Source of the DNA: Schmidtea nova
Taxonomy: Eukaryota
Assembly: GCA_044892505.1 (NCBI GenBank)
Contig: CM097882.1
Span: 495,566,001 to 495,630,000 of the forward strand
DNA: 64,000 nucleotides
Direction: 5' to 3'
Below, in pieces: positions 24,396 through 48,877 of the stretch. The translations under genes and the position numbers were made by a program. Position 1 is the stretch's first letter. The number at the start of each line of letters is the position of its first letter. The notes beneath the pieces were generated by a model that saw nothing but the letters and a program-made list of their open reading frames with translations, was not told the origin of the DNA and made no database searches.

Positions 24396-24435
24396 AGAAT
24401 ACTAAAACAGGTTGTTATTTTACATGGATGTTTTC

Positions 24436-27918: not shown

Positions 27919-27999
27919 ACTGTTTTCTTTACAGATAGATCAATACAATTTGACACTACATTCATACAATTATTTACAAAAATATATTTTCCGCTTTAT

Positions 28000-29061
28000 T
28001 TACACAATCGTCTCGTTTGGTTCGTAGAAACCTTCGTCCTGAGGCTCTACTTGGTTCGTGGGGAGTGGTATCCAAACAACCCTGCTCCTCCACATTTCGA
28101 CTTCATCTCGATACATGTGAGATATCTGGATCTCCTCGTCCAGCAAATATTCTAGGTAATTTGCTTGTTCTGTTAATGTTTCTATTTGCTTCTCTAATTC
28201 GATTACTTTTGTCTTTTGTTCGTCTTCCTTCATCATTTTTGTTACGGCTGCCGTTATACTTGCTTCTTTGGGTATTACTGATACTGTTACTCGTTTCTGT
28301 TTCAATTCTTCGTTTTCTTTCATCAAATTCGTTAAATTTTCCTCATAACTTTGTTTCTCTTCCTTTAACCTTTCTCTGGTTCTTTTTAGCTCTATTTTCT
28401 TCTGGGTAATCACTCCTTGGTAACCATTTATATCTCTCTTCATCTCTTCTTCTTTCTGATTCCATATTCCGGTGAGCATAGATTTCAGTTGTTCTTGATT
28501 AGCTAGTTCTTCTCCCATTCTTTGAACTTGATAGGTTAGTCCTTTAATTTTCTTTGCTTGTTCGCGGATAAATTGCTGTCTTTTTGTATTCCATCTTTTA
28601 TTTAGCACTTCCTGGTTGATTTTTTGCTCTAATTCGTCTTTTAGTTCATCGATCTCTTTATATAATTTCCAGTCATCACTATAAGCTGTCCTTTCTATTA
28701 TTTCTCTAGCTTTTTCATAAGATTCTTTCGCTTCTTTCTTCCAGTATCTTGCTTGTTCTGTAATCGAATACATCTTGTGTTCAGCTTCCATCTGCTGTCT
28801 GTCTCTTTCCTCTCGTCGCTCTTTCATCATTCTCTGGTAATATTCCTTTTGTTGTTGTAGCATTTTGTATACTTCTTCTACTTTTTCTCGACTTCTTTGA
28901 TTTGATCTTTCAGTTTCTTTTAATAATTCGGCTTGTCTTTCTACCTCTTCTTGCTTTCTATAATATGCATTGACCAATATTTCTATTTGTTCTAGATGAT
29001 CGCTAATCGCTTCTGCTTGATGCGTCGTAATTTCCTGTAAGCATACCTCGATATTTCCCAT
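28000..29061 (-). CDS. Accessory 353-aa long coiled-coil protein
   Basis: E/K/Q/R-rich heptad sequence over nearly the whole length; ATG preceded by TTATAG. Confidence 0.8.
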   Translation of the reverse strand: MGNIEVCLQEITTHQAEAISDHLEQIEILVNAYYRKQEEVERQAELLKETERSNQRSREKVEEVYKMLQQQKEYYQRMMKERREERDRQQMEAEHKMYSITEQARYWKKEAKESYEKAREIIERTAYSDDWKLYKEIDELKDELEQKINQEVLNKRWNTKRQQFIREQAKKIKGLTYQVQRMGEELANQEQLKSMLTGIWNQKEEEMKRDINGYQGVITQKKIELKRTRERLKEEKQSYEENLTNLMKENEELKQKRVTVSVIPKEASITAAVTKMMKEDEQKTKVIELEKQIETLTEQANYLEYLLDEEIQISHMYRDEVEMWRSRVVWIPLPTNQVEPQDEGFYEPNETIV

Positions 29062-29174
29062 TGCTATAATTACAGAAAAAAAATTTTAATCGGTTTATAT
29101 ATCAGTTATTTTTGTTTATATAATAATTTTTGGGTAATTAACTGTACATATTATTTACATGATCACTTTCCTTG

Positions 29175-30557
29175 TTACGTCAACCATCCTTTTCTATCCG
29201 CTTTCTCATTCCTTTCCATTTCTATGTATAGGGTGTCTGCATATAATCGTTCCCATAGGCTTTCTTTCGTTATAAACATCGGTTCTCCCGCTGCTAATCC
29301 ACATTCTGTGGTTGGTTTCTCGCTTGTACTCGCATGTTTCTCTGTCTCAAAGAATTTTTCCACTGGTTTTGTTACACTTCTGATTCTTACAATGACTCCT
29401 ACTTTCAAGGGCCATTCTACTAGGTCGTCGTATTCTCCTTTACATAGCGAGAAAAATATTGACACATGTGTTCCTCGTCCTCTTCCGTCTCCATTTGGGT
29501 ATAGCTTCAATCTCACTTTAGCTCCGTTTCTCCATAAATAAAATGGTGGGCTTATTACTGCTGTTTTCGTCATATTTCTGGCCTCTGTTAATTTGTTTCT
29601 AAAATCTGTCACTTTCCACACATATGGTGCGATTGGTAACTTTTCCTCGGTATCCTGGGTGAGTTTGTTGTACTGGATTTTCATTCCTTTAGCCAGTTCT
29701 TCGATAGCTTTTATCTTTTCCTCCATCTTTTCTCGTGTTAGTTCGAATTGCTCTCTGGTTTCCAACAGTAGGTTTACCATTATCTTGTGTGACTCTATTT
29801 CTCTTTCTAATTTTTTGATTGTTTGTTCGGTTTCCTTTGTTGCTTCGTTTGTCATTTCCGCATGCTTTAGCAATGCTTCCTCCAGATGTTGTTTCATGGT
29901 TTTTTGCGTTCTTTTCTCCATACATCCCTGTTTGTTATAAGGGCATTCCCTTGGTTTCTCCGTGCACACTTTCCAATGTTCTTGTAATTTTACTTCTACC
30001 GTTATCTCGCATTCGTTTGAACATATTCCTACATATTGTCTACATACTTTCTCCTCTTTTATATTCAGGTGTTCTTCTTCGATCTTTCTCCTCGTTTCTC
30101 GAGTTCCACAATATTCGCATAGACTTTCCTCTTCTTTACATTCATCTTTGTGCTGCTCTTTATTCTTTATAGTTATTTTTTGTTGGCATTTGTTACATTC
30201 AGTTCTCTTCTCTTCGCAGTTCTCCAGATGGTTCTCGAGATCGCGTATTTGTCCTTGCCATATACATGGTTGATTTATACATTCGGTTTTCGTGTTCATG
30301 ATTTCTCTCTGAGTTGCTCTATCTGGTCCGGTTTCTTCGAATTTTATTTGTCCTTCTTTGCATTCTGGACATTCTGGTGGTCTTTTCCTACTTAACTCGT
30401 GTATGCATTTGGTACATACTCTGCATCCGCATAAGGTTTGTCTTGGTTTCAATATTATGTTTTTACAATTTACACAAGTGAGTCTCTGACTCCATTTCCT
30501 GTTCTCGGCTCTCAAAATTTCGATTATCCGCTCTTCGGCTTTTCCTTCTGTATTCAT
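29175..30557 (-). CDS. Intronless TRAF2-like protein (RING, TRAF zinc fingers, coiled coil, MATH)
   Basis: RING CVNC..CGCRVC..C..CPEC; DRATQREI; CIWQG; MATH WKVTDF..SPPFY..LYPNGDGRGRGTHVSIFF..WP. Confidence 0.93.
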   Translation of the reverse strand: MNTEGKAEERIIEILRAENRKWSQRLTCVNCKNIILKPRQTLCGCRVCTKCIHELSRKRPPECPECKEGQIKFEETGPDRATQREIMNTKTECINQPCIWQGQIRDLENHLENCEEKRTECNKCQQKITIKNKEQHKDECKEEESLCEYCGTRETRRKIEEEHLNIKEEKVCRQYVGICSNECEITVEVKLQEHWKVCTEKPRECPYNKQGCMEKRTQKTMKQHLEEALLKHAEMTNEATKETEQTIKKLEREIESHKIMVNLLLETREQFELTREKMEEKIKAIEELAKGMKIQYNKLTQDTEEKLPIAPYVWKVTDFRNKLTEARNMTKTAVISPPFYLWRNGAKVRLKLYPNGDGRGRGTHVSIFFSLCKGEYDDLVEWPLKVGVIVRIRSVTKPVEKFFETEKHASTSEKPTTECGLAAGEPMFITKESLWERLYADTLYIEMERNEKADRKGWLT

Positions 30558-30648
30558 TCTACAATGATATATACACTTGATTTGTTATCTATTTTTTGAT
30601 TTTTCTTGTTTTTGTTTTTACATATTTACAATTTTTCGCTTTATTTAT

Positions 30649-31005
30649 CTACGGCTCGTTTGTTGAATCTGGTTCTGGGTCATTTTCCGATCTGTTTATT
30701 GCCCAATTTGTCCATCCATCCTCTGCTTCTTCTGTCTCTCCCATTGTTAAACGGTCTATCTCTATTGCTTGTCTCTGATTTATGTCGCTCATCACTTGAT
30801 TCTCTCTGGTAAGTTGCGTTATCAATCTCTGTTGCTCCTCGATTCTGTGGAGTTGTTCAAAACTATTATTATAACTTTCGGATAACAAATTCTGTTTCTC
30901 AATTAACTGATTTTGTAGTGAGTTGATTGTTCGTATTAACATGTCACACTGGGCTTTCCATCGCATAGCCATAGTAGTTTCTGCTATTTCTTCCTGTTCG
31001 TTCAT
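30649..31005 (-). CDS. Accessory 118-aa coiled-coil protein
   Basis: ATG ORF between the pol stop and TRAF; Q/E-rich heptads. Confidence 0.65.
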   Translation of the reverse strand: MNEQEEIAETTMAMRWKAQCDMLIRTINSLQNQLIEKQNLLSESYNNSFEQLHRIEEQQRLITQLTRENQVMSDINQRQAIEIDRLTMGETEEAEDGWTNWAINRSENDPEPDSTNEP

Positions 31006-31130
31006 TTTCTAAATTATATACATTAATCGTTTTCTCGATTTCTCTTTTTATATTTTTATAATATCGATACCCATACTATTACGGTAATGCATTGTTATTT
31101 ACACTATTATTTACAGTCATATCCCGCCTC

Positions 31131-34100
31131 CTATATCACCATCACTGTCTTTCCTTCGTATCGCTCTTCATCTTCTATTTGTCTCCAAAATTCTTTACCT
31201 TTCGTCCTCCTTTGGAATTCTTTATGTACTTCTTCCGGTAATTCTATACTGTAGTTCATAATCTTTATATCTGGCCAATGTGTTATTGGTTTCTTGTTGA
31301 ATACATCATATATCCATATTATTAATAATACTGTTATTACTGGAATAGTTGCTGCTAGTATTCCTAGACCAATTAGTTCTCTAACTTGTTTGTTTACGTC
31401 CATCTTCGTAATTTCACTCTGGTTAATCATTGGTCCGTATTGTCCCTTTAGTTTATTTAGTAGTTGTTCTCGTTCTTGTTGTTTTCTTTTAACTTCTTTA
31501 ATTACTTCTTCCGGCGTCCATCTTGCGTAAGGGTCTATTACTACTTGTTCCGCGTCCATTTGTTTCGTTGTCTGACTTAATTCTTTAAATTCGAGTTTTC
31601 TCACTTTCCCTTTGGACGTTGAGTTTACCGGTGTGTAGTACGTTTCGCATCTTTCCTGCTGATTTCCCAATATGTCCGTCTTTTCTATCGCACATATCTC
31701 GTATTCGCTATTGAATTTCAGGTTCCTGATACTTATTTCCTCTTTTCCTTTCACGTTTCCACAGTCTCGTGGCTGTCTTTCCCTTTGTTTCTGAACTATT
31801 ACCCAACATATTTCTAACGTTTTATTGTCTATTCTCCATAGTATAAGAGTTGCTGTAGTATTCTTTTCGGTTTTTATTTGTATTTCTTGGTTTTTCTGTT
31901 GTCCATTAGGTTTAAAAGTAGTGGTATACCTCGCTTTTCCTTTGTTCCGTTGTCTTCTGCTTTTTCGCGTTGTCTTTCCAATTCTTGTTCTGGTGGGTGT
32001 TTTATATAATTTGCATTCCAATTCACTTACTGTTATTTTGTCGCTTTTCCTGATCAGGCATATTTCGTACGTTTGATTGCTTTCTAATCCTTCGATCTGT
32101 ATTGTGGTTGTTCCTCTGTTTGTTCGACATTGCGGCGGTGTATTCTGGTTTGTTTTCTTTTCCTGCTTCTTCCAGCATACGCCTTTGACGTCCGGTTCTA
32201 TTCCGGTTAACTCTAACATTATAGTTGTTCTCCGTTTGGTGCGTATATTTTTTCTTCTTCTTCTTATGAACTTTATTGTTTCCCCAGGTTGAAATGTTTT
32301 ACAAATTGTCGTTCCTTTCTTGTGTCTTTCTTTTTCTAGTAAACATAGTTCATACGTCCTGTCTGCTTTTACTTCTGATATCTTGGTTACTTTATTTGTT
32401 TTCCTTTTCCGACTCGTCTTTATTTCGCTTACGCCAATTTCTTCGTTGTTTCTGGCCCAACACTTTGGGTTGGTATTTTGGGTGTCGTTCATCTCTGTTA
32501 CTGCCATTGTGTCAATGTCTATCCCTTCTTCTAACCGTTTTAACATTGTTAATATGAGTGCTAAACACAGTAATTCTGTTTGGTAGGTCACTCTTTCGGT
32601 CTCGTTTGTGGTTACTCTTGCTTCGGGCCTGTCTATGGTAATTCGTATAGTTGGCGTTGTTCGTCTGTCTATTGTCTGGGGTTTCTTGTTTTTTGTTCCT
32701 TGTGTCTCTGTTCTTCCACACTTTCCTACGACATAGTCTCCTTTGGATGACTGCTGTACTGTTATGGTTACTTTGGGCGTTAGGTAGTTTGCACATGCGA
32801 TTGTGTTGTGTGATCTTGGATTCTTTTGTTTTCTGATGGTGCATATTTTGTACCAAGTATCTAGCTCTAAGTCATCGATCTCTATGATTTCTTGTTCGTA
32901 TTCTGAGATCTTGCAATCCATTGGACTATTTTGTCCCGATATTTTGTCCTTTTTTGACCAACATACTCGTTCGATTCCTTTTGCGTTTCCAATTTGTATT
33001 GTCGCTCTTTCCTCACATATCATTCCTTGAGTTGGACTAATTAAGGTCATGATTACCGTTAGTAATAATAGTTCTGGTTTAAAGAATGGGTTTATTGTTT
33101 GTTTGTAGCTTGTTCTTTTTGCTTCGTTTTTATTTTTATAGTTGTTGTTTCTTTGTTTCCCAAATTCATTTTTCTTATCATTTTTCTCTGTGTCCCTTCC
33201 TTTCTCTTCACTGTCCTCTTCATCTGATAACTCATGATCCTCTGGATTTTCTCGAGTACTATCGTCGTCGTTTCCTGTATTGTCGCCTCCCCTTTGGTCG
33301 TTGAAAATGTCGTCCTCGACATTAATTGCTTCTATCATTTTTTCATACGTTATGGTTGTGAGTATACTTGCTTCATATTCTTGTGTTACTGCCTGCTTAG
33401 GTATTTCCTTATCGGTTAATTTACAATCTAGAATCTCTTTCTTGGCTTTTATCCAATTATTAAGGTACGTTTTCATTAGTTCTTTCCATTTGTCCGTACG
33501 TTCTGTTTCCTTTGGGTTGTTTGTGAATCGCAAATCTTTTCTTCTCATGAAGATTTCTATTATCTTTGGCCATTTGTTTATTATTAATGCACACTTTATA
33601 TATAAATTTTGGCCTTGTTCCATGAACTCGTTGATCCTAAATGCTGGTTCATTGGTGTTTGGGTTCATCCAATTGAGTATTGCTTCGGTTAGTTCAGCGT
33701 TATGCATCATGGAATGTACGCTAGCTTTTTTAACTGTCCTTGTAAGGTATTCTATTTCCTCCTGATTTGTGATTGTTTTTATGAAATTTATCACCTCCCA
33801 ATTGTGCGCTAATAACGCTACGTCTAGTATTGAGCTGTCTTTGTTAGTTCTTCCCATGAGTCCTGCACCTGCTTCGTACAGTTCCTGTAACACTCGGGTT
33901 TTTGTGTTCGCTCTTGCTGCAAATATCATGAGGGTATCTCCCTTTTTATCTTTCATGTTCATGTCACTTCCGCAATCTTGCATCAACCGTGCAATTTCGA
34001 CTACCCTCCTCTCTTTTCTTGCTCGTAAGGCTCTATGTATTGGCAATACTCCATTCTTTGTTAATAAGAAAGTCACTGGCATTTCTCTTTTTATGATCAT

Positions 34101-37100
34101 CATATCGTTTTCATTGTAAGTTCCTTCCGCGTATGCGTGTACCTTTTCCACAATTGCTCCGAGTATCTCCAGTGTATGTTTAGAATTTTCGAATTCTGGT
34201 AATAGTTCTTTTGCTTTGTCCTGTATCGCATCTAACCTTTCTTGATATGGTACCTCTGCGCTGAAAAGTGGTGTCAATTTCCTTTTGCTTTCTCTTTCCT
34301 TTTGACTTAGGAATTGTTTGCATTTTTCGGGGTGGTTTAATATGTCTATTAGTTTGTCATACTCTTCCTCCACCGTTTTGTATTTATCCTGAAAATTGGA
34401 TATATCTTTGTAAGTTATCGTCTTGGTTAGCGATTTTGCACACCATTCCCTAATTTTCCTGAATAATGCTTCTTTTTCACTTTCGAATTTACACTCCTCT
34501 TTGTTTTTGGAAATTGTGATATTTCTTCTGTCCAATAATATTAACAGTGTTTTCTGATCACAAACTAATTTTAATAGGAATTGTAATAACGCGTTTTGTC
34601 CTTTACTGTATACTTCGTTTATATTTAATACCCATGTATCATTTTCGGATCTTTTCCATTTTATCAGCTTGCGTATTGTTTTGCAGTTACCGATTTTTAT
34701 TGCCTCCTTGATTATATCACCTTTGATCAGTTCGTCTATTTCCCAAGTGGCCTTCTCGATTATTTGTTTGAGCATTATCTGATTTGAGCTCCATATTGCG
34801 TGATTCAAGACTGTTTTGTTTTCTCTATCGCGTTCCGTCCAGTTGAAATCGGCATTTATCAAAAGGTCTATTATTGCTTTATCCGATTTGTAGATGGCTG
34901 CTACCATTAATGGTGTTTCTTGTTCGCTATTCCCAAAACCAAGGTGTTGGTTTGTTTCCTTTGCGATTTTTAGAAATTCTTTTACTCTCTCTACTTCTCC
35001 CCATTTTATGGCGTTATGTAATGCTGGTTGTCCTCCTATGTCTTGTAGTGAAAGTATTTCTGGAATTTTCTCCAATAGTTCTGAAATGACTGGTTTTGTT
35101 GGTAGTCCCCTTGCGTAATCACTAATTATCAATTGTATATCTCTTAATATATCGTCTCTGACATGCCATTTTCCCATTATTTCTCTGGCTTTTAGTACAA
35201 TTTCCTTGTTTCTTTTTTCTTGTTGCTTGTTTTCTGCTTCGGTACTTTCATCGGTTGTTCTGAGCATATTTATCCTGGCTGTCTGGGATCTTGTTATTAT
35301 TCGTTCTTCTGGCACTGTGGTTATTGTTTTTGGTACTTTCTTACATCTGCATGTATTAACGTATATTGGTCGTATCAATGGTCGATTAACAAGTTTTACC
35401 TTCACATTGTTTTCCTTTTTGTATATAACTTCGTAAGGGCCTTTTCCTGGTCTTTGTAGTTTTTTAACGGTTCCTGGTATTATTTCTGGGGTTTCTATCA
35501 TTACCCAATCTCCGGGTTTAAGATCATTTGTTTTAACATTTTTCTTTTGATCGTGTAGGTCCTTGTAACTTTCTTGATAAAACTTTATGTTTAGTTCTGC
35601 TGTCTTCCATATCTCTTGCATTCGTTCTTTGAATTTGGTGACGTAATCATCTTCCTCCATATATTGAGACAAGGGTGGTTGATATTCAAGATCTATTGGC
35701 ATATTGCATTCCCTTCCATACATTAATTGAAATGGACTCAATTTTGTTGCTGCGTGTATCGACATTCGGTATGCCATTAGACATAGCTTTATGTACTCAT
35801 CCCAATCTGTTTGGTGTTTGCTTACATAATTGGATAACATTCGAATCAATGTGCCGTTAAATCTTTCCGTTTGTCCATTAGTTTGCGGATGATATGGTGA
35901 CGTTCGTAATTTGGCTATTCTGAAGTAATTTGTTACTTCATCTAGTATTTCGCTCATAAAATTTGTTCCTTGATCTGTTAGTATTTGTTTCGGGGTTCCG
36001 TATCGACAACATATTTCCTCTACTAAAATTCTTGCTACGGTCTTTGCTTTTTGATCCGGCATCGCAAATGCTTCAGGGAATTTAGTCAAATAATCCGTTA
36101 TTACCAATATATATTGATTCCCGTTCAAACTTTCTGGCAATGGTCCTATTACATCCATCGCAATGGTAGTCATTGGTTCCGCTGGTATTGGCATGGGTTT
36201 TAAAGGATTTTTCCATTTCTTCCCACTATCCTTTCTTGTGGCACAAGTTAAACAGTTCTTTATCCATTCCTTTACGTCTTCGTCCATTGTTGGCCAATAA
36301 TATTTTTGTCTCATGCGATCTAATGTTTTCTTATCGGACATGTGTCCTCCCAACTTTCCGTCATGGTATTGAGTTATTATCTCTTTTCGTCTATTACTTG
36401 GCAGACACATTAATCGTTTTTCTCCATCTTGTATTAACAACCATCCTTTTTCTATTGTGTATCGATGTTGGTATTTCCTCATGTGTTCTTTTAACTCCGC
36501 ATTGTCTTTGAATACATCCATATTTCGTGAGCTTAGGAATTCTATGATGGGTTTTAGTTCTTTATCCTCTTGCTGATCTTTCTTTAACTCACAGAAATCC
36601 AAATCCTCTGCTATCACTATGCATATTCTTTGCACTTCTGGATCTGTTAGTTCTGGAAACGTCAATCTTGACATACAATCCGCGTTGGCATTCGCTTTCC
36701 CTGATTTGAATTTTATATCTGGTGAATATTCTTGTAATTGCATTGCCCATCTCATTAATCTGCTGGATGTTTCCTTGTGTTGTCCTAGCCATACAAGTGG
36801 TTGATGATCCGTGGTTATGCATATAACGTGTCCCCACAATAGATATTTAAAGTGTTTTATTGCTAATATTATTGCCAATGCTTCTCTTTCCGTTACTGAA
36901 TAATTCTTCTCGTGTTTCTTGAATGTTCTGCTATAGTATCCGATTACTCGTTCTTTACCTTCGTCATCATATTGTCCTAACACTGCTCCTGCTGCATATC
37001 CACTTGCGTCGGTTGCGAGTAAAAATGGCTTCTTGAAATCCGGGTGAACCAATATTGGTGCAGTTATTAGCTTATCTCTCAATGTTTCAAAGGCGGTTTG

Positions 37101-40100: not shown

Positions 40101-43100
40101 GTGTAATTTAACATCGTTCGTGTGTACTTTGCGTTTCGCACTAGGTACTTCTTGTTTTGATACAAAAATGCCGGGGTAGTTGGTTTCCAACATGGCTACT
40201 CCGCATTTCAAGGCTGTTTTTCCTTTTACAAACCTCATTCCGATATCTGCATCTGAGGTAATTAGTACCGTTGGTGTATTTCTCATTTTAATTTGTTTTT
40301 CTTGTGTTCGGGTTTCAATCTTTTTCTCTCCCCGTACGGTGTCTTGAAGTATTTTTCCTCTTGCTGCCTCGTCTTCTTCTTCCTCTTGGAAGGTTTTCCC
40401 TTGTATCTCATCGAATTCTGCTTCCTTTAACAGTTGTAGTTGACATTCCTTTCCTCGTATCTGGTATGTTAAGGTTGACATACCGGTTTGGCAAGTGTTT
40501 GACTCGATTTTGCACATGGGCAGGGTTTTCATTTCTCCCGTTGTTGGATCGAAGAATGCCTCGTACGTCTTTAATTCTACTGTATAGGTATCTATTACCA
40601 CTAGGTTTGTTGCTGCTACTCCGAATATTGGATATGTTGCTCCTTGGCAGTACCCTTCTCCTCCCGTAATAGCTCCTGCTACATAATATGTTTGTTGTAA
40701 TATTACTCCCGTTTTTCCTCTTATCTTTACTCTATCTCTAGTCTCTACTTCTCCATGTTTGAATAATTTTTCACAGTCTTCTCCTTGCAGCATTACCGAT
40801 TCTCTTTCCGTTCCTGGCATCACGATTGCTGAATAATGGCGGTGCCCACAATAAAAAGCAAATCTGGTTTTATAAACTTTGCATTCTCTGACCATTGTTC
40901 TTATCAGTTCAGCTTCCTGATATACGTGGTATAATTGTCTCTTTTTTAGTGTTTTTAGCTCCGTTGGGGTTGCGTCCTTACATTGTTCTGTCCCTCGTAG
41001 TGAATATTTCTCACCTAATGCCATTTGATCACAATCGAATACTTCAAATGCTGTTGCTCCGTCAGTACTAATCATCCATATTAACATCATCATAATGATA
41101 GAACTCAAGTTTAGTGATGATTTCCCGTTTCCTGTTCCCGACTTTTCCTTTTCCAATTCTCCCAATATCTCTTCGAATTTCCTTTTCATATTTTTGGCTT
41201 GGTTTTTCTTTTGGTTCGTTTTTGTGAATGTTTCCCATCCTCCTTTACTGATGATGTACGGTTCTATTTCTTTCTCTATAATTTTGGCTGTATTCTTTAT
41301 ATGTCTTTCGAGTGCTGTAGGTTTCAGTCGACCTCTACTCAGTGTCAGCAGATTGTAAATGGTGTATGCCATAGCTATTAAATATTTGTTATCCGTCTCT
41401 GCTCCTTCCGTTAACTTCTTTATCAACATCGTGGTTCCTTGCCAATCTAGGTGGTTTGACCTTGTCTTCTCTTTTATTAGTTCTGGTAGGATTGGTGCGA
41501 TGGCGCTATGCAGTGATTTCGCCCTTTCGCTTATTTCATTTATTCTCCACCATTTCTTTAATTCCGGATCGATTATTGCCAGTATTTCCATTAACATCTT
41601 TGATATCCATTCCTCGCCTTGGTATGTTTGTGTTGTTTCTTTTTCTTTCGTTTCGGCTATTTTATTTAGTTTCTTTAAACACAAATCCCATTGATCCCGT
41701 CTTTTTTCCTCTCTTGATTTTATAACTACATTTGCTGGATCTATCTTGGGTCTACCTCTAGGTCGTTTATCCATTGTCGTGCCCGTTTCTACTAATCTTG
41801 ATTCTCGTCCAGTTTCTTCTGTGACGTCTCTTGGTTCATTGGCTCTTTCTTCTAACCATCTTTCCATTTCTTGTGTGAATTGTACATTTTCTACATTTGC
41901 CCTCCTTGCTTCCTCTTCTGCTATTTCATTTACTTCTTCTATTATTATTTCTTGTTCGACTTCATCTTCGGTGTTGGTTACCGGTATTGCTGTTGGTAAT
42001 TCTTGAATTCTTTCGAAAATATTATCATCTTTCTCTTTTGTTAGCTCTATTAACTCTTCTAACATATCATCGCTATCTGTAAAAATTTCGTCTACATCGT
42101 ATGGTTCTGGTGGTGTTCTTTCTCTTGTCTCTCTTGGTGTTGTTCTAGCTTGTTCTGAGCTTGTTCCTGGAGTCATTACCGATTTCATTGGGCTCGGCGT
42201 ACTCATACTTCCTTTTGGTTTCTTTTCTTCTTTCAATTTCAATGGTTGGCCTACTATTGCTGCCACTGTCAATGTATTTGCGATATCTAATTGCGCTGGC
42301 GTTATTCCAATTTCCAAGTTGTTATCTAATGATCGTCCTTGGTGTTGTAAATGGAATGGTGGTTCATATCTCAATTTCTTTTTAATGTCCCGAACTTTCT
42401 CCGCTATCCCTACCCAAAACTCTTCCTTTTCCTGGTTCGGATATACTATTCTTAGGTGTACTTTCTGTGGCGATTCCTGCGAGAATTCTTGGTTTCTCCA
42501 TTTTTTAATTACGTGATCCAATTGTTCTGGACACCACTCGTTAACTCTTTTGTATTCGGCGATTGCGTTTGCTACTTTACGCAGGCATGTTATGTCTTCT
42601 CCATTAACTACGAAAAAATCTGCGAGACCTTTTACTACTTTTCTCTTGCCGTGCGCATTGGTTTTTAATATTTCGACAAATTCTTCTGTTTTTTGTTTCT
42701 CTCTTTCCAACCACATGGTTGTTGTTTCAGGTCCGTCTAAATCCGCTGGCATGGCTTTTCTTGTTACCATACAGACTCTTCCGGTTTCCGGTTTGTGATC
42801 GTCTTCTATGCCTATTTCATATTCTTCTTCGTATTCACCTGCTTTTGGTTCCCAACATTTTCCTCGTTCGTTCCATTGTTTTTCTACAGGTGTTCGTAAT
42901 CGTCTGTTGAGATTGAGTTCTTCTAATACATCTTCCCATTCTGGCCAAATCCGCCAATTTCGATAAATGTCTACTATTCGTTGTAATTTATGCACAACTT
43001 CTTTTTGTCGTTCCCGTTCTCTTTTCTCATCCTTAGCAGCTTCTCTTGGTGTATCGTCCATTCTGATAACGTGGATGGTTTGGTGATTATCCCATATACC

Positions 43101-43928
43101 AATTTTATATAGCCGTCTTTCATCGTGATCCCATAATACATGTTCGTTGTATTTCATGATTATGTCATCTTCCCATTCTTCTTCTGGTTCTCTTTGTAAT
43201 AGTGTCTCGTTGATGACATTTACTAATTCTTTTATGGTACAATCTGCTACCACTTCAATTTCTTTGGTATCCTCATTAGGTAACTCTACTGAAATTTTTA
43301 GATCTGTTATTTTCCCTTGTCTGAACATTGCTTTTCCCATTTTGGCAATTACTTTTCCGAATGAGATCTGTGACCATCTCGTGTGACTTGTGTCACGTAT
43401 GCATTCGATACATCGTTTCAACTTTTCGTATTCGCTTCTCATTAACTCCTTTCTATGTTTTTTGATTTGTGGGATGATTTGTTCTATCATGGAATTTAGA
43501 TTTCCTCGTAAGATTCGTCCTTTCTCATATTCTAACCGTGGTTTTATCTTCTTCTCGAAACACATATTTGCTTCCTTTGCTACTTCTTGTAGGTTCTCTT
43601 CTCTCTTATCATCGCATATCGATAATGTTGTCACCTCTCCTGGCCATATGCCTGTTTCTATCAAATGCGTCCTTTTCTTCACTAGTCCATTCTGTGAATA
43701 GAGGAATTTGTTTTTATATGAACTCCCTAATCTATCTTCTACCCATTGATAAATATCTTCCGTGAGTGGAGTTTTGATCCAAATCCTTGGCAAACATGTT
43801 TTTATCTCTATTAGGATTATATATTCATGGAGTGGTTCTTTTAATAATTTTCCTACGTATTGGCTTAGTGTTTCTACTTCCCGGCCTGGTAACCACTCTT
43901 TATAGTTCATTTGTAATATCGCTCTCAT
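31131..43928 (-). CDS. pol: 4265-aa polyprotein: UBLs, AT-hook, Bcl-2-like, chuvirus-like glycoprotein, PR, RT, RNase H, IN, ankyrin repeats, FN3-like repeats, TM
   Basis: PR DTG (38664-38672); RT YIDD (37446-37457); RH TDASG and TDHQPL; IN HHCC, MDVIGP, TDQG, ERFN; other domains detailed in findings. Confidence 0.96.
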   Translation of the reverse strand: MRAILQMNYKEWLPGREVETLSQYVGKLLKEPLHEYIILIEIKTCLPRIWIKTPLTEDIYQWVEDRLGSSYKNKFLYSQNGLVKKRTHLIETGIWPGEVTTLSICDDKREENLQEVAKEANMCFEKKIKPRLEYEKGRILRGNLNSMIEQIIPQIKKHRKELMRSEYEKLKRCIECIRDTSHTRWSQISFGKVIAKMGKAMFRQGKITDLKISVELPNEDTKEIEVVADCTIKELVNVINETLLQREPEEEWEDDIIMKYNEHVLWDHDERRLYKIGIWDNHQTIHVIRMDDTPREAAKDEKRERERQKEVVHKLQRIVDIYRNWRIWPEWEDVLEELNLNRRLRTPVEKQWNERGKCWEPKAGEYEEEYEIGIEDDHKPETGRVCMVTRKAMPADLDGPETTTMWLEREKQKTEEFVEILKTNAHGKRKVVKGLADFFVVNGEDITCLRKVANAIAEYKRVNEWCPEQLDHVIKKWRNQEFSQESPQKVHLRIVYPNQEKEEFWVGIAEKVRDIKKKLRYEPPFHLQHQGRSLDNNLEIGITPAQLDIANTLTVAAIVGQPLKLKEEKKPKGSMSTPSPMKSVMTPGTSSEQARTTPRETRERTPPEPYDVDEIFTDSDDMLEELIELTKEKDDNIFERIQELPTAIPVTNTEDEVEQEIIIEEVNEIAEEEARRANVENVQFTQEMERWLEERANEPRDVTEETGRESRLVETGTTMDKRPRGRPKIDPANVVIKSREEKRRDQWDLCLKKLNKIAETKEKETTQTYQGEEWISKMLMEILAIIDPELKKWWRINEISERAKSLHSAIAPILPELIKEKTRSNHLDWQGTTMLIKKLTEGAETDNKYLIAMAYTIYNLLTLSRGRLKPTALERHIKNTAKIIEKEIEPYIISKGGWETFTKTNQKKNQAKNMKRKFEEILGELEKEKSGTGNGKSSLNLSSIIMMMLIWMISTDGATAFEVFDCDQMALGEKYSLRGTEQCKDATPTELKTLKKRQLYHVYQEAELIRTMVRECKVYKTRFAFYCGHRHYSAIVMPGTERESVMLQGEDCEKLFKHGEVETRDRVKIRGKTGVILQQTYYVAGAITGGEGYCQGATYPIFGVAATNLVVIDTYTVELKTYEAFFDPTTGEMKTLPMCKIESNTCQTGMSTLTYQIRGKECQLQLLKEAEFDEIQGKTFQEEEEDEAARGKILQDTVRGEKKIETRTQEKQIKMRNTPTVLITSDADIGMRFVKGKTALKCGVAMLETNYPGIFVSKQEVPSAKRKVHTNDVKLHLYMNNKMDFLFHRGQASLQKVYYDLINNDCILNREILKTKLAVAITNPDSAMPLLPLREGHFGRVVGEVMYVYICKKTNAKVATMTKLQPGQCTNELEIEYKGKVRYVQPVTRIINPVSFEPNPFNCSNAYGPLYQKPDGNWVMFPSRTEVPAPREFELMQLSKGRKFKDVDVSNMGFYSAKDLEAARQNILFPARREAVLSSIVTITGGTNYQGGPNYELLLSPAHFKKATENMMKAMWGRFLIFGQMMAGILGVILIIQIIRVIITQMLACFDIYKREKKVNWKLVVGFLPFLAKTMVLHGHSKDIHRIKRLLKILAKMKGTDEEVGRKFKKIMNNEQARQQLKRERKGLWERMKGYRTQDDSSDDDDDDNEGGQVVKNQVPQYVEKNPAEMWKCYAPPPTMYQEPTPGMRQNTMQMMPMTNIYPMIPEDYRTRRCRSVDPQGDSHTIAVMSSNTGPVLTTTIEINGREIEAMIDTGANISAIDIKWIPQEQRRDIERTNVHVIACSKEVVEVAGRWWVKIKHQNTEIETYVAVIPALSVPCIIGTDLMPALFKEIVIDLGTMRLKDRTGQICAIEAKVTSSKQIIVPARREKICFVKIDPTIEGDMIFEPSKRFEKRKSLPMARGLVSANDNGEIPINVVNFDEEDKIIYENERLGKLTPMIDIEIPIKEGVKEEEPTWNIDSQLLNEDQKKQLERLLIEYKDIFAASDLDLGTCDVTLHTIPLTDETPIALRPYKLAEAQKSVAEAEVQKMLDAEVIEPSCSPWQFPVVMVKKKDGTQRFCIDYRRLNAVTKRDTYPLPDINEMLLTLQGAAYFTSLDLKSGYWQIKMKEEDKEKTAFTIGRDLYQFRKMPFGLTNAPASFQRCMNFVTHGIKQCMVYIDDLLIYSSTFEQHIQDIRDVFVRLRQWKLKLKPSKCDWAKEKVTFLGHIVSAKGKEPDPRNIDKVKECPVPKTITQIQEFLGLCGYYRKFIKDYAGIAKPIQELVKKDVSFIWGSEQQTAFETLRDKLITAPILVHPDFKKPFLLATDASGYAAGAVLGQYDDEGKERVIGYYSRTFKKHEKNYSVTEREALAIILAIKHFKYLLWGHVICITTDHQPLVWLGQHKETSSRLMRWAMQLQEYSPDIKFKSGKANANADCMSRLTFPELTDPEVQRICIVIAEDLDFCELKKDQQEDKELKPIIEFLSSRNMDVFKDNAELKEHMRKYQHRYTIEKGWLLIQDGEKRLMCLPSNRRKEIITQYHDGKLGGHMSDKKTLDRMRQKYYWPTMDEDVKEWIKNCLTCATRKDSGKKWKNPLKPMPIPAEPMTTIAMDVIGPLPESLNGNQYILVITDYLTKFPEAFAMPDQKAKTVARILVEEICCRYGTPKQILTDQGTNFMSEILDEVTNYFRIAKLRTSPYHPQTNGQTERFNGTLIRMLSNYVSKHQTDWDEYIKLCLMAYRMSIHAATKLSPFQLMYGRECNMPIDLEYQPPLSQYMEEDDYVTKFKERMQEIWKTAELNIKFYQESYKDLHDQKKNVKTNDLKPGDWVMIETPEIIPGTVKKLQRPGKGPYEVIYKKENNVKVKLVNRPLIRPIYVNTCRCKKVPKTITTVPEERIITRSQTARINMLRTTDESTEAENKQQEKRNKEIVLKAREIMGKWHVRDDILRDIQLIISDYARGLPTKPVISELLEKIPEILSLQDIGGQPALHNAIKWGEVERVKEFLKIAKETNQHLGFGNSEQETPLMVAAIYKSDKAIIDLLINADFNWTERDRENKTVLNHAIWSSNQIMLKQIIEKATWEIDELIKGDIIKEAIKIGNCKTIRKLIKWKRSENDTWVLNINEVYSKGQNALLQFLLKLVCDQKTLLILLDRRNITISKNKEECKFESEKEALFRKIREWCAKSLTKTITYKDISNFQDKYKTVEEEYDKLIDILNHPEKCKQFLSQKERESKRKLTPLFSAEVPYQERLDAIQDKAKELLPEFENSKHTLEILGAIVEKVHAYAEGTYNENDMMIIKREMPVTFLLTKNGVLPIHRALRARKERRVVEIARLMQDCGSDMNMKDKKGDTLMIFAARANTKTRVLQELYEAGAGLMGRTNKDSSILDVALLAHNWEVINFIKTITNQEEIEYLTRTVKKASVHSMMHNAELTEAILNWMNPNTNEPAFRINEFMEQGQNLYIKCALIINKWPKIIEIFMRRKDLRFTNNPKETERTDKWKELMKTYLNNWIKAKKEILDCKLTDKEIPKQAVTQEYEASILTTITYEKMIEAINVEDDIFNDQRGGDNTGNDDDSTRENPEDHELSDEEDSEEKGRDTEKNDKKNEFGKQRNNNYKNKNEAKRTSYKQTINPFFKPELLLLTVIMTLISPTQGMICEERATIQIGNAKGIERVCWSKKDKISGQNSPMDCKISEYEQEIIEIDDLELDTWYKICTIRKQKNPRSHNTIACANYLTPKVTITVQQSSKGDYVVGKCGRTETQGTKNKKPQTIDRRTTPTIRITIDRPEARVTTNETERVTYQTELLCLALILTMLKRLEEGIDIDTMAVTEMNDTQNTNPKCWARNNEEIGVSEIKTSRKRKTNKVTKISEVKADRTYELCLLEKERHKKGTTICKTFQPGETIKFIRRRRKNIRTKRRTTIMLELTGIEPDVKGVCWKKQEKKTNQNTPPQCRTNRGTTTIQIEGLESNQTYEICLIRKSDKITVSELECKLYKTPTRTRIGKTTRKSRRQRNKGKARYTTTFKPNGQQKNQEIQIKTEKNTTATLILWRIDNKTLEICWVIVQKQRERQPRDCGNVKGKEEISIRNLKFNSEYEICAIEKTDILGNQQERCETYYTPVNSTSKGKVRKLEFKELSQTTKQMDAEQVVIDPYARWTPEEVIKEVKRKQQEREQLLNKLKGQYGPMINQSEITKMDVNKQVRELIGLGILAATIPVITVLLIIWIYDVFNKKPITHWPDIKIMNYSIELPEEVHKEFQRRTKGKEFWRQIEDEERYEGKTVMVI
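39200..41114 (-). other. Env-like domain: chuvirus/Jingchuvirales-type class III fusion glycoprotein inside the polyprotein
   Basis: Signal SSIIMMMLIWMISTDGATA|FEVFDC; YSL..TEQC; ECKVYKTRFAFYCGHRH; KCG..ETNYPGIF; LYMNNK; CILNREIL; GEVMYVYIC; GFYSAKDL..ILFP; TM WGRFLIFGQMMAGILGVILII. Confidence 0.82.
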
Positions 43929-44000
43929 GAATTTCCGATAGTGTTTCTTGTCGATGAATTCCTCATTATATATTACTTCTAGTGCGTTATCTAATAATTT

Positions 44001-46514
44001 CTAGATCTCATCCTCTTTTACTTGAATAGTTTCTGGTGTCTTTACTACTTCTATCTTTTTGTCTTCAATTTCCGGTTCGTTTAGCATATCTCCTGCTAGA
44101 CTACTGACGTCACTATCCTCTTCGTCATCTGAAAAATTCTTTGCCTGGCCTCTCAACATGTTAATGTGTTTTATTTGGTTGATTTCACTTGGTGTATTTT
44201 CCGTTGGTCTTGTTTCACTTTTAATATCTTTTTGTGTTGATTCACTCTTGTCGTCTACTACTTCGACCTTTCTCATTTTTCGTTCTAACTCGTCTATTTC
44301 TCCCAACCGTCTTCGTATCATTTTCCCTTTAAATATTCGACTGATTCGTGTTTCGTGACGCACTGGCGATGGAGTTCCTTCTGGTTCTATTTCCTTGATT
44401 ACCATCACATTTCTTTTTGTCTCTACTACTCCCATGTTTTCCCATGTATCCGTTAGTTTCAATTTTACTTCTGGTGCACCTTCTATTTTTAGGAATGCTT
44501 CTCTGGGCAGTTTCGTTACTCCTGGAGCCATTTCATTCACTTTGTTGAATAATGTTCCTACTTCTTCCTTTATGTTATATTGGAATCGAAACATATGACC
44601 GTTTGGCAGGATTACCATCATTCCCTTTTTCCAAATCATTCTTTTCTCTTCCTGGTTTGCCTCTGTTTCCACTTCCTTTTCTATTTCTGTTTCTTCGCTT
44701 CCTGGTACTATTTCTTTTCGACTTTCGTTATTGGTTGGATTCAGGTTTGTTGGATTTATTTCTGGCACAGTCTCTTTCTCGTGGGTATTTGCTTGATTGG
44801 TTGCTCTCATCATATTAATTCTTAGAGGTTGTCGTTCTCTTTCTTGCTGTTTTTGTTCCTCTTCTCTTTGTACTCTTGCCCATTCCTGAGCATGTCGTGC
44901 TTGACTTTCCCGATTCAATTGTTCGTTTTCGCTTTCTATTTTTCTCATCATATTGATTTGTTGTTGACCTGTTTGCGGATTTCCTCTGGTTGTATTGTTT
45001 ATCAGCTCCGTCAATCTTTGAACCTCTTGCATTAAATGTATCTCTTTAGTGGTATTTTTATTTTGGTTATTATTATTACTATTTGGTTGGTTTCCGTATT
45101 CCGGTTGGTTTCCATTATTTGGCTGATTTCCATAATTCTGTCGGTTTCCACCAGTTGGTTGGTTTCCATAGTTTTGTCGGTTTCCGGTATTCTGCCAGTT
45201 TCCTCGTTGATTGCTTCTTTGTCCGCAATTTCTTGATAGGTGTCCAGGTCGTCCACAATTAAAACAGGTTATTGTGTAACATCTGCTCTCTGAATGCCCT
45301 TTTACTCCACATTTTCCACAATTCAAGTTCTGATAACATTCTTGTTGCCAATGTCCCAATTTCCCACATGTTTTGCATTGTTTCGTTGGTCCTTGGGGGT
45401 TGTAATTGCTTTGATTTCCGTAATTTGATACTTTATTCCCTTCATTCCTTCGTTGCGGTGGTGGTCGGTTTAATTGTTGTGAATTTGGAATGTGGTTATT
45501 CAGGTTCACTTCTTGTTCGTTTTGTGCTGTATCCATAGCTAAATAGATTCTACCATCATTTCCTATCATGTGTAGTTCAAATCTATTAGCTGTTTCTAGT
45601 GCTTGGTCGATGGTTTTACACCCTTGACATCCAACTTGCGCTCTTATGTCGGGTCTTCTTAATCCTCCCACAAAGATAGCTGCCATTAACTCCTCATTTA
45701 TTGGGCTGTCTTGATTAAAGATCAACTTTGCTAACTTTTTCAATTCGCTCGCATATACCGCATTCGATTCATTTATCTTTTGTTTCCTCATTGAGAATTC
45801 CGTGAATGCCTCATTCAATACTTTGTTTATTCCGAAGGTTTGTTGGAAGAAGTCCTTTATCGCTGACCAACTTGTAGGTGGATTAATTCCATTTTTTGCT
45901 TCCAAATATAGATCTAATGCGCTATCTTTTAAATATAGCTGAATTCTGCTTACAGTTGTTTCTGGTTTCCACTTGCATACTTCCACGAATATGCCAAATT
46001 CCTTTAAGAAAGTTTCCAGTTTACTCGCATCTCCATTAAACGGTTCTCCGGAAAATTTGTCTTTTATCTCTTCTCTTGGTTCACTCATTTCGATTCCGCT
46101 GTCTGTAGTTATTTTACTTTCGTTTCCTCTTGTTTCTAGTTCACTGTTAGGTTCGTCACTCGAATTTCGGTCGATCTCAGTTTCTTTTGCTGATTCGTTA
46201 TCTGATGCTTTACTATCGTTATCGGTATCGTCACTTTCTGTTTCTTGTTCTACTTCGTCTTCTATTTCTTCTATATAATCGTTGTTGGTTTTGTCGACTT
46301 CTATTTCACTTATTGGGTTTCTCTCGGGTTCTGCTTGATTTTCTTTGTTGCTTGAACTGTTGCTTGTTGCTGATAGTTTATCGTTTTCGATAATCGACTT
46401 TTGTATTATTATCTGCCTTGCTTTACTTCCTTTTAGGCCTTTCTGATTATTATTCTTGGTAGCTTTATTCTTTTCTGCTGGTTTTATTATGACACTCTTT
46501 TCTCCTTTTCTCAA
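44001..46514 (-). CDS. gag: Gag: acidic N-terminal region, Ty3-type capsid, three CCHC knuckles, Q/N-rich repeats, UBL/UBX-like tail
   Basis: PFNGDASKLETFLKEF..LYLKDSALDLY, RKQKINES capsid motifs; CX2CX4HX4C x3 (45220-45380). The track start is TTG. Confidence 0.92.
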   Translation of the reverse strand: MRKGEKSVIIKPAEKNKATKNNNQKGLKGSKARQIIIQKSIIENDKLSATSNSSSNKENQAEPERNPISEIEVDKTNNDYIEEIEDEVEQETESDDTDNDSKASDNESAKETEIDRNSSDEPNSELETRGNESKITTDSGIEMSEPREEIKDKFSGEPFNGDASKLETFLKEFGIFVEVCKWKPETTVSRIQLYLKDSALDLYLEAKNGINPPTSWSAIKDFFQQTFGINKVLNEAFTEFSMRKQKINESNAVYASELKKLAKLIFNQDSPINEELMAAIFVGGLRRPDIRAQVGCQGCKTIDQALETANRFELHMIGNDGRIYLAMDTAQNEQEVNLNNHIPNSQQLNRPPPQRRNEGNKVSNYGNQSNYNPQGPTKQCKTCGKLGHWQQECYQNLNCGKCGVKGHSESRCYTITCFNCGRPGHLSRNCGQRSNQRGNWQNTGNRQNYGNQPTGGNRQNYGNQPNNGNQPEYGNQPNSNNNNQNKNTTKEIHLMQEVQRLTELINNTTRGNPQTGQQQINMMRKIESENEQLNRESQARHAQEWARVQREEEQKQQERERQPLRINMMRATNQANTHEKETVPEINPTNLNPTNNESRKEIVPGSEETEIEKEVETEANQEEKRMIWKKGMMVILPNGHMFRFQYNIKEEVGTLFNKVNEMAPGVTKLPREAFLKIEGAPEVKLKLTDTWENMGVVETKRNVMVIKEIEPEGTPSPVRHETRISRIFKGKMIRRRLGEIDELERKMRKVEVVDDKSESTQKDIKSETRPTENTPSEINQIKHINMLRGQAKNFSDDEEDSDVSSLAGDMLNEPEIEDKKIEVVKTPETIQVKEDEI

Positions 46515-47068
46515 CGGGATTACTTTTGTATACTCAATTTTCCTGTCTTATCGTATTCCGATTCTTTTCTTCCTTGGTTGCTTGGTTTGGTTTGATTGAT
46601 TTATCTAAAATACAAATGTCACTTCAACGATACTCTATTGTTATCGTTGCGCTTTTATTCCCTTTTTACGGGACTTCTCATTACTGGGTTTCTATTATTT
46701 TTCCCCATTCCCAGATTCCCCTTTATTTAAGTCTATTTAAATTATCTATATACTAGTCACAATTATCTATTTAGTCATAACAATTATCTATCGGTTATTA
46801 AAATACATCAATTATTTTTCCCGCGGTCTCCCAATTTATTTGTCGTTCGAACGCTCTAATTCCCTGAGTCATTTGACTCGATTATTATTTTATCATCTCT
46901 TTATCTTTCTCTCTGCTAGCCTCTAATTATTAATTCTGCCGGTCTTTCCGGTCAGCTCTTATTTCTCAATTCTACTTGCATGCATTATTTTAGGTCGCAT
47001 AATCAGCTTTACTCGCATTTCTCAATTCCTGGTGCGCACTATTCTCATTATCGTCGACGATCACAACT

Positions 47069-47587
47069 CTGGGCCTATATTCCCTCTGTTGTTATTTCTT
47101 ATCACTTGCAACCCTGGGCCTATATTCCCTCCGTTGCTACTCAACAATTGTAACCCTGGGCCTATATTCCCTCCGTTACTATATATCCGGATATCCCTAT
47201 TGGCTCCTTTGGCCTCTAATTAATATCAATTATCTCAAATGGCTCTTATGGCCTCAAATTCATATCTCAACTATCTCAAATGGCTCTATTGGCCTTAAAT
47301 TATATCTCAATTATCTCAAATGGCTCTATTGGCCTTAAATCATATCTCAATTATCTCAAATGGCTCTATTGGCCTTAAATCGTATCTCTCAATAACGCCT
47401 AGCTAGGTCATTCAATATGGCTCTTTGGCCTCAACCCTTTGTTTCAAGGGACAACCCGCTGATAACCCTTTGTTTCAAGGGACAAATTCTAATAACCCTT
47501 TGTTTCAAGGGACAAACCGCTGATAACCCTTTGTTTCAAGGGACAAATTCTAATAACCCTTTGTTTCAAGGGACAAACCGCTGATAA
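47069..47587. repeat. Three tandem-repeat blocks in the 5' leader
   Basis: CTGGGCCTATATTCCCTC x3 (47069, 47114, 47156); 40-bp unit x~4 (47221-47388); 30/31-bp unit AACCCTTTGTTTCAAGGGACAA x5 (47433-47587). Confidence 0.93.
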
Positions 47588-48060
47588 CTTTTCCTTAACC
47601 GGTTAATCGTAATTCTTAACTTCGCTAGCGACTACAATTTCTCAGCTGAGTTCTCTCAATTTCATGCGAGCTGATTATGCACCTCTTATTTTTCTCTATA
47701 ATTCCTCGATTCTTTGTTTTATTACTAATTCTTTCGCTGATCAGTCATAATTCAATTTTTATTATTTTCTCTGCGCGCATCTTACCTCATCAGGGTTTTC
47801 CCTATTTCTCTCCCCAACCAAAATATACAAAAAGATCGCGTTGGTCTACTAATGCGGGATGTGGTGATCAATCACATCACAAAAGCTTTCCAACATTTGC
47901 GATTGGCCCCTTTCTATATACCCCGAGTGGGTTGATCAACTGGTACCTCCCAATGGGTGCTTAACGGACTACTTGACAGTAGCTCAAAAATTAATTAACA
48001 TTGTTGATTGCTCCCCTGACTTTGTCATTCGATACAATATATTAACACTCTAAATATTTA

Positions 48061-48522
48061 TTATAAATAAACTACAATTTTATCAGCTACAGAGAAATTG
48101 CACATGGGGCACTCATCACACTTATTCGCACAGTTTTTACAGAATCGAAAATGTCCGCATGGTAGAAACATTATTTGGATTTCACTGTCTTCGCATATGT
48201 AACATTGTTTATATTGTTTTGCTGCCTCGACCCCTTGCGACATCCATCGGTTATATGTTAGACTTAACTGCTGTTCTATATGTCGGCATCTGATATTCAA
48301 CTCGGCATCCTCTAATCGTGCTTTGTACCATTTATATCGCGTATTTATATCGAGTTTATTTACTTTCTCTATGATTTTTATTAACTCAGTTGTTTCCTCA
48401 GTTTGTGTCGTAGGTTCCTCATATTCGGATGCTCTTATTCGGGTTATTTTTTCGCAGACTGTCTCAAATGTATCGTTCTCGGTGTTGAAAAATTCCTCGA
48501 TTTCTTTCAGTTTTTCCTCCAT
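48061..48522 (-). CDS. 153-aa protein with a C-terminal IAP-type RING finger (no BIR)
   Basis: CYICEDSEIQIMFLPCGHFRFCKNCANKCDECPMC..KIVVYL matches the XIAP/cIAP terminal RING pattern. Confidence 0.88.
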   Translation of the reverse strand: MEEKLKEIEEFFNTENDTFETVCEKITRIRASEYEEPTTQTEETTELIKIIEKVNKLDINTRYKWYKARLEDAELNIRCRHIEQQLSLTYNRWMSQGVEAAKQYKQCYICEDSEIQIMFLPCGHFRFCKNCANKCDECPMCNFSVADKIVVYL

Positions 48523-48853
48523 TTCCTAGATAATTTATTTAATTACTGTGTTAATATTATTCGAAAAGTAGTACTGTGTTTCGTTTCTGACAGTTTACAG
48601 CCTCCCCCCGTGTTTCGGTAAATTGTCGTCCCGACCTGTTATTTATGAATGCATTTATTAATTTATCTATTTCATTGTGTTGTTGTTTTTATTTACCCAG
48701 TTTGTTTAATTCTCTGTTTATAACTGTCTATTTCTACGCAACTCGCTTTCGTCTCGATTACTCTTTCGGTTACTATTTCTACTCACAAAATTCTGATTTT
48801 TTAAATTTCTCTGTTGTCATTGGGTTCACCTTTTCCGCATAAAAACAAAGTTG

Positions 48854-48871
48854 ATCCCGGCTGAGCCCCCA
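48854..48871 (-). promoter_or_regulatory. Primer binding site, tRNA-Pro type
   Basis: TGGGGGCTCAGCCGGGAT, 6 nt after the 5' LTR; 16/18 identical to the classical tRNA-Pro PBS TGGGGGCTCGTCCGGGAT. Confidence 0.85.
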
Positions 48872-48877
48872 AATTTA

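Follow-up and report, generated by a model that had tools for sequence, protein, structure and literature searches.

Results

A giant LTR element and its gene order

We analysed a window of 64,000 nucleotides from Schmidtea nova (GCA_044892505.1, contig CM097882.1, positions 495,566,001 to 495,630,000 of the forward strand), in which an earlier, sequence-only reading had noticed a set of domains related to cell death and immunity. All of those domains lie on the minus strand and within a single element bounded by long terminal repeats (LTRs; 23875..52144, 28,270 bp). This is an env-bearing Ty3/gypsy LTR retrotransposon of about 28.3 kb, most likely a recently inserted giant gypsy retroelement of the Burro type and a further member of a family already described. 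Its features are given below in window coordinates and, like the element itself, are on the minus strand.

The 5' LTR (48878..52144, 3267 bp) and the 3' LTR (23875..27141) differ at 2 of 3267 bases (99.94% identity), so that the insertion is a young one. The termini are TG...CA, the flanks carry a 4-bp target duplication, and the internal region measures 21.7 kb. The element has split a decayed hAT-type transposase, and the hAT matches resume on either side. Adjoining the 5' LTR is a probable primer-binding site (48853..48871), which we take to be tRNA-Pro-like. Each LTR contains two open reading frames (ORFs), of 198 and 163 codons (24436-25032 and 25339-25830, and again in 49439-50833), for which there is no significant Pfam match. 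As for the hAT-type transposases of the window, which have Spin-doc zinc fingers, one lies at 13610-15423 and the decayed, split one at 23387-23874 / 52101-53305.

Reading from the 5' LTR, the element consists of a 153-aa RING ORF, three tandem-repeat arrays in the leader (47064..47588, no strand assigned; units of 42, 40 and 31/61 bp), gag, an in-frame TAG, an ORF of 4289 codons, and four accessory ORFs. These last encode, in order, a probable coiled-coil protein of 118 aa (30649..31005), a TRAF, a second probable coiled-coil protein of 353 aa (28000..29061), and a 190-aa product with one transmembrane segment (27346..27918). The gag gene (44001..46547) has three CCHC knuckles and terminates at the in-frame TAG (44001-44003) that directly precedes the 4289-codon ORF; a relative of the polyprotein, P0013, is open across the equivalent point (read there with an X). 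The TAG may be either a nonsense change specific to this copy or a site of programmed readthrough, both of which are compatible with a single copy. Together gag, the stop and the long ORF span 5138 codons. Upstream of the first gag Met, the reading frame stays open for 153 codons. A motif of the form DSG-x3-S, which we take to be beta-TrCP-degron-like, lies in this open frame at and just before the Met (46085-46103); since 36 of 500 shuffles match it as well, it may be due to chance.

By Pfam, the 4289-codon ORF contains a Monjiviricetes-type fusion protein, protease, reverse transcriptase (RT), RNase H and integrase, followed by ankyrins. The env (39171..41108) has a signal-like segment, the fusion glycoprotein (PF24664, E 5.5e-68) and a transmembrane segment; it stands in frame before the protease, and it is 35% identical to a second relative, P0014. 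The protease-RT-RNase H-integrase region (35214..38714) retains protease, RT and integrase motifs.

Membership in the Burro family

The Burro elements of planarians are gypsy LTR elements of more than 30 kb with a polyprotein of about 4,900-5,100 aa (PMC6431247). Among their domains are MATH_TRAF, BIR, ankyrin, BCL2-like and Ubi/SUMO-like, with env in frame between gag and pol (PMC6431247). They are traced as well to Grohme 2018 and Jurka 2007, as cited in the same paper, which also describes a Burro-like element from Dugesia tigrina with a 5,140-aa ORF, a separate upstream TRAF ORF and two knuckles. A further paper reports BURRO1 expression and RNA interference, with little bearing on the present element (PMC8532177), as is also the case for PMC7958881 and PMC13238120, and the passages of bioRxiv 10.64898/2025.12.11.693146 that we consulted contain no mention of Burro.

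We judged membership on architecture, against these published descriptions rather than against the named Burro sequences. The element agrees with the descriptions in its LTRs with a target duplication, its internal region of more than 20 kb, its order of protease, RT, RNase H and integrase, and its mononegavirus-like env in frame between gag and pol. Its cargo agrees strongly in TRAF and ankyrin, and weakly in the Bcl-2 and ubiquitin folds. The sequence-only reading had called such an anti-death and immune kit typical of large DNA viruses and not of retrotransposons, which is mistaken for this family: it is a described hallmark of Burro LTR retrotransposons. In 2019 the apoptosis and ubiquitination domains of Burro were already said to suggest meddling with these host systems (a 'tinkerer'; PMC6431247), and to that extent it is already published that a giant planarian retrotransposon may carry anti-death cargo.

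Two relatives allow us to compare cargo. When a 911-aa N-terminal region was used as the query, P0013 was the sole match among 1.84 billion representatives; it shares 31% identity with our element across the ubiquitin-fold region, ends before the Bcl-2 domain, and carries within its polyprotein a MATH domain that our element lacks at that point. The other relative, P0014, is 4029 aa long and was the best of 10 hits. It comprises gag, a single ubiquitin-like domain, env, protease, RT and integrase, ends in a membrane tail, and gives no Bcl-2, ankyrin or MATH match; the search that returned it included no named Burro sequence among its matches. The relatives thus carry different cargo sets, and cargo is shuffled within the family. 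We observe in addition that P0014, a Burro-like polyprotein, has three aspartyl-protease stretches, one of them past the integrase.

The RING, TRAF and ankyrin cargo

According to the sequence-only reading, the cargo of the element converges on a single TNFR/TRAF2-cIAP-NF-kB pathway.

The RING ORF (48061..48522, 153 aa) consists of an N-terminal region and a C-terminal C3HC4 RING (Pfam zf-C3HC4_3, E 8.6e-12) whose zinc ligands are intact. Among its PDB matches, the best 10 of 15 are IAP RINGs (XIAP at E 4.7e-11, cIAP2, cIAP1, ML-IAP), with CGRRF1, MYLIP, MEX3C and MIB1 following not far behind, and the ESM Atlas returns generic C3HC4 RINGs only. An IAP-type RING, as originally proposed, is therefore borne out by Pfam and by the IAP-topped PDB list. 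An IAP proper is not, because the IAP family requires at least one BIR. Pfam detects no BIR, either in the nine main ORFs or in another 121 frames taken from the leader, the 5' LTR and the 3' region, and a search of all six frames for the BIR zinc motif (the only check applied to alternative frames inside gag-pol) gives a single match, which is a TRAF zinc finger. In cellular cIAP1 it is BIR1 that binds TRAF2, and deletion of BIR1 abolishes binding (PMC3172091, PMC6262405). With a BIR-less RING, the proposed cIAP-TRAF2 link is lost.

The TRAF is a full-length single ORF (29175..30557) with the RING, TRAF zinc fingers, coiled coil and MATH domain that define the family. Its MATH domain is recognised by Pfam at E 5e-21, and all 37 of 37 PDB matches are TRAFs; in its RING, a Cys stands at a position where a His ligand is usual. 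The protein had been described as TRAF2-like. Full-length TRAF identity holds, but specificity for TRAF2 is not confirmed: the MATH bit scores are 82.9 for TRAF5, 82.1 for TRAF3 and 78.8 for TRAF2, and the N-terminus is best matched by TRAF6 (48.1). The stretch of MATH that aligns with 'SSSF...ASGCP' of TRAF3/5, whose residues presumably line the receptor-tail groove, is altered at several positions. In a poorly sampled MATH tree of the element, P0013 and 7 of 12 TRAF hits (four short-contig hits and one hit without MATH were left out), which contains no planarian host TRAFs, the element and P0013 group at 86/79 on long branches; this is a suggestive lead only.

Two short ankyrin blocks follow the integrase (34752..35081 and 33780..34055), and both are found by Pfam (Ank_2, E 2.8e-13 and 1.1e-4). 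An IkB-like protein would be recognised by a single run of 6-7 ankyrins most like IkB, with a neighbouring DSGxxS degron. The top matches here are ankyrin-1/2 and DARPins, IkB is absent among the best 60 of 86 ankyrin matches, and the 4289-aa ORF contains no DSG degron. The ankyrin repeats first noticed are thus real, but they are generic repeats and their supposed likeness to IkB is not borne out by these matches.

With no BIR found, and with neither TRAF2 specificity nor an IkB signal confirmed, convergence of these proteins on one pathway lacks its links. In its base composition the cargo matches the rest of the element. GC content is 0.36-0.39 in the cargo and 0.377 in the RT-integrase region, compared with 0.277 in the flanks, and GC content at third codon positions (GC3) of the cargo likewise matches RT-integrase and not the flanks. 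This is consistent with long residence of the cargo in the element. The cargo ORFs are open, with zinc ligands retained. The architecture and the flanks of 27.7% GC point to a triclad planarian as the probable host; the genome of S. mediterranea is more than 70% A/T (PMC11410931).

The Bcl-2 and ubiquitin folds

Between the ubiquitin-like region and env lies a probable Bcl-2-fold domain (41196..41723), which has a BH2 motif and is followed by the hydrophobic env leader, beginning about 40 residues past BH2. Pfam gives E 0.1 and covers BH2 only, PDB sequences give no match at E<=10, and the ESM Atlas has no usable match. The single-sequence structure model is poor (pLDDT 48). When it is searched with Foldseek, all 40 of the 40 rows listed belong to the Bcl-2 family, at E 0.08-0.48, and they are pro- and anti-apoptotic alike (BAK, Mcl-1, Bcl-xL). 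By VIA, Bcl-2 family members occupy 13 of 50 rows (Z 5.6-6.3) and rank under unrelated helical bundles (Ndc10/CBF3, Cre). The list of viral matches is headed by viral Bcl-2 homologues, only at E>=0.3. The BH1 motif [NST]WGR is absent from all 7 ORFs scanned, and no relatives of the Bcl-2 and env stretch occur among 7999 candidates (proteins of 660-2102 aa). Thus, the Bcl-2-like domain of the sequence-only reading is likely a Bcl-2 fold, as judged from this model, albeit a weakly marked one without the BH1 NWGR. A Bcl-2 fold works in the intrinsic pathway and not in the TNFR pathway.

For the ubiquitin-like candidates we used a leave-one-out homology test, comparing each with shuffles and with other windows, and three of the four pass. 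Domain 2 (43050..43313) is the best supported, with a Pfam Ubiquitin_4 match at E 0.027; its score is reached by 1 of 300 shuffles and by none of 181 other windows. Domain 1 (43602..43835; 0 of 300 and 0 of 181) and domain 3 (42240..42476; 0 of 300 and 1 of 181) are weak, and domain 3 searched alone gives no ubiquitin-like match. A fourth candidate, at the end of gag (44382-44642), was rejected since 68 of 300 shuffles scored as high. A profile built from the window only is non-significant (E 0.57-0.87), its matches being kindlin-2 and a kinesin domain, both of which we take to be ubiquitin folds. A six-row profile that includes the two relatives places ubiquitin-like proteins in the best 9 of 12 rows, with a best E of 7.6e-4. 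Of the several ubiquitin-like domains once proposed, three are therefore likely present, if weakly, and the gag-end candidate is not among them. They are embedded ubiquitin-fold domains rather than conjugatable modifiers; no C-terminal di-glycine (LxGG) occurs in the 7 ORFs scanned.

A second membrane-protein module

After the integrase and the ankyrins lies a module that is absent from the sequence-only reading (31305..33095). It has a signal-like segment, four Cys-containing FN3 repeats, identified by repeat alignment, and a transmembrane segment. The structure model of repeat 4 (pLDDT 82.7) resembles FN3, with a best VIA Z of 9.1 (rmsd 2.6 over 83 aligned residues, L1CAM FN3) and a Foldseek E of 0.005. 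A repeat also gave 14 weak sequence matches, to proteins that presumably contain FN3. An extra hydrophobic stretch of 11 residues lies between repeats 1 and 2, and for this reason the topology of the module is uncertain.

The same position after the integrase is occupied in a neighbouring element by one such FN3-like repeat (62.5-64 kb), within a signal-FN3-transmembrane module like the one found here with four. At the corresponding place the tail of P0014 also runs from a signal to a transmembrane segment, but its similarity to the FN3 tail is no higher than for shuffles. Neither section 7 of PMC6431247 nor the 10 of 45 literature-search matches listed, a scope that does not extend to Lee 2026 and Grohme 2018, gives any link between FN3 and Burro.

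The neighbouring element is itself gypsy-like (60331-63999, minus strand) and runs off the end of the window; it shows an integrase, a signal, the FN3-like repeat and a transmembrane segment. Its ORF at 60331-61662 has a weak likeness to ISG20-type DEDD exonucleases (PDB E 0.006).

Other features of the window

Two further features lie outside the giant element. A tandem array (17597-22076) is composed of units of 846-1022 bp with fragments of a KRR1-type KH domain (E 1e-19). A Penelope-like RT ORF (863-2260), with a GIY-YIG-like end as judged by eye, is located within 704-2358 and is flanked by two inverted arms, each about 169 bp long and 93% identical to one another.

Discussion

Rather probably, in our judgement, the element is a Burro-type element whose cargo modules, captured separately, would each lower signalling for death or stress. 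The cargo would consist of old host modules, captured one by one, which the family gains, loses and moves. These modules would act independently, keeping the cells that express them alive and quiet, without any TNFR-TRAF2-cIAP-NF-kB complex. The BIR-less RING would be an E3 ligase that finds its targets either through the N-terminal region of the same protein or by teaming up with RINGs of the host; the full-length TRAF would act as a decoy or an E3 among the host TRAFs, which are expanded and injury-induced; the Bcl-2 fold would be a cytosolic domain that the env leader next to it holds at the endoplasmic reticulum (ER); and the ankyrins and ubiquitin folds may serve as generic adaptors. Here we infer expression, every target and the effect on survival.

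Published work makes several of these steps plausible. Burro1 B-IAP, which has a BIR and a RING, is reported to shield stem cells against apoptosis mediated by caspases (Lee et al. 2026 Dev Cell, cited in PMC13465017). The manipulation of cell survival, which the sequence-only reading had suggested, thus has a published precedent in Burro and is plausible for this element. Planarian host TRAFs are expanded, and few Pfam domains are as abundant in S. mediterranea as MATH and Ank (PMC6109357); given this abundance, the TRAF and the ankyrins are likely captures in any case. Homologues of TRAF2/3/5 are induced after injury under the regulation of TBK1 (PMC13563047), which favours some connection with immunity.

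Several considerations weigh against this proposal. The case is made from the sequence of a single copy. The published Burro1 effect came from a protein with the BIR that is missing here, and may not transfer. The Bcl-2 assignment derives from a model of pLDDT 48, and its matches include the pro-apoptotic BAK. Because of the in-frame TAG after gag, where P0013 is open, the cargo downstream of it may not be made from this copy. Finally, the TRAF ORF of the D. tigrina element is upstream and its knuckles number two, as opposed to a downstream TRAF and three knuckles here, such that identity with that element does not follow.

The cargo might also serve the element rather than its host cell. Unlikely as we hold this to be, the cargo could function mainly in the life cycle of the element, that is, in ubiquitin-dependent processing, trafficking, particle assembly and cell-to-cell spread. 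The ubiquitin folds, the Bcl-2 fold and the ankyrins form part of the polyprotein that supplies the structural proteins and enzymes, and P0014 retains a ubiquitin fold and the membrane tail without death-related cargo. Judging by the signal and transmembrane segments, env and FN3 would be lumenal and everything else cytosolic, but that topology is blurred by the short hydrophobic stretch after the first FN3 repeat. The RING and the TRAF, however, are separate accessory ORFs, and the published effect of Burro1 concerns apoptosis (cited in PMC13465017).

A bolder proposal, which we put forward as speculation and consider rather unlikely, is that elements of the Burro type are infectious retroviruses whose single polyprotein is cut to give two surface proteins, plus an ER-anchored Bcl-2 fold, and that Burro families are distinct host-manipulation kits and not one mutualist design. 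The mononegavirus-type fusion protein would then precede the protease, and the FN3 module after the integrase may be an attachment or receptor-decoy protein. The same polyprotein may tether the Bcl-2 fold on the ER via the env leader, and the BIR-less RING could antagonise IAPs instead of mimicking them. The FN3 membrane module in any event bears on the question of the cell-to-cell spread of Burro elements.

The single anti-death kit first proposed, a TNFR/TRAF2-cIAP-IkB/NF-kB assembly with the RING and TRAF of the element as direct partners, now seems improbable. In its favour are the best matches of the RING, which are IAP RINGs, and those of MATH, which are TRAF2/3/5. In planarians, infection can cause tissues to degenerate, and both xiap and traf2-1 influence this outcome (PMC4993586). 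Viral Bcl-2 folds can inhibit NF-kB (PMC2494871), and seven divergent RHD factors exist in S. mediterranea (PMC13563047). Against the kit, no clear NF-kB homologues have been identified in that species (PMC13563047), and some viral Bcl-2 folds do not act on apoptosis at all (PMC2494871). The missing BIR also speaks against it, since BIR1 is the TRAF2-binding domain (PMC3172091, PMC6262405). The ankyrin matches without IkB and the differing cargo subsets of the relatives point the same way. The residues of the presumed MATH receptor groove are also unlike those of TRAF3/5.

It is very improbable that the cargo consists of decaying neutral passengers from abundant host transcripts, as the abundance of MATH and Ank (PMC6109357), the missing BH1 motif, BIR and canonical TRAF groove and the internal stop might suggest, in view of the long open frames, the full sets of zinc ligands, the composition matching that of the element and the 31% identity with P0013 retained across the ubiquitin-fold region.

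We return, then, to independent modules that dampen death or stress signalling. If the BIR-less RING, the full-length TRAF and the Bcl-2 fold also protect cells, then the reported mutualism of Burro1 would be a family-wide strategy carried out by different parts. The element is in this sense a natural test of whether the BIR is required, and what most deserves to be followed up is its RING without a BIR, together with the FN3 module.

Comparison with known systems

Compared with the cellular cIAP1/2-TRAF2 complex, the element has the same type of RING and the same TRAF architecture; it differs in having no BIR1, which that complex needs, and a TRAF no closer to TRAF2 than to TRAF3 or TRAF5. 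Poxvirus A52/B14 (PMC2494871) and other viral Bcl-2s would share with it a divergent Bcl-2 fold without canonical BH1 in a mobile genome. The probable fold is here fused inside a retroelement polyprotein, however, and the likeness would be at the level of the fold, with viral matches only at E>=0.3. Burro1 B-IAP is likewise an element-borne protein with an IAP-derived RING, but it has both BIR and RING, where the present element has the RING only.

The closest comparison is with Burro1-4/GYPSM1 of Schmidtea mediterranea and the D. tigrina element. Burro1-4 carry a BIR; here none was found by the searches above, and a RING stands alone upstream of gag. The dUTPase-like segment of Burro is not detected by Pfam. 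In published Burro elements the TRAF lies inside the polyprotein or forms an accessory ORF, and in our element it is a separate full-length ORF downstream of the polyprotein; the FN3 membrane module, conversely, is absent from the description in section 7 of PMC6431247. In other respects the architectures are alike: a gypsy element of about 30 kb with a frame of about 5,000 codons, containing gag, Ubi/SUMO-like and BCL2-like domains, an in-frame env before the protease, RT, RNase H and integrase, and ankyrins, together with TRAF cargo and tandem repeats.

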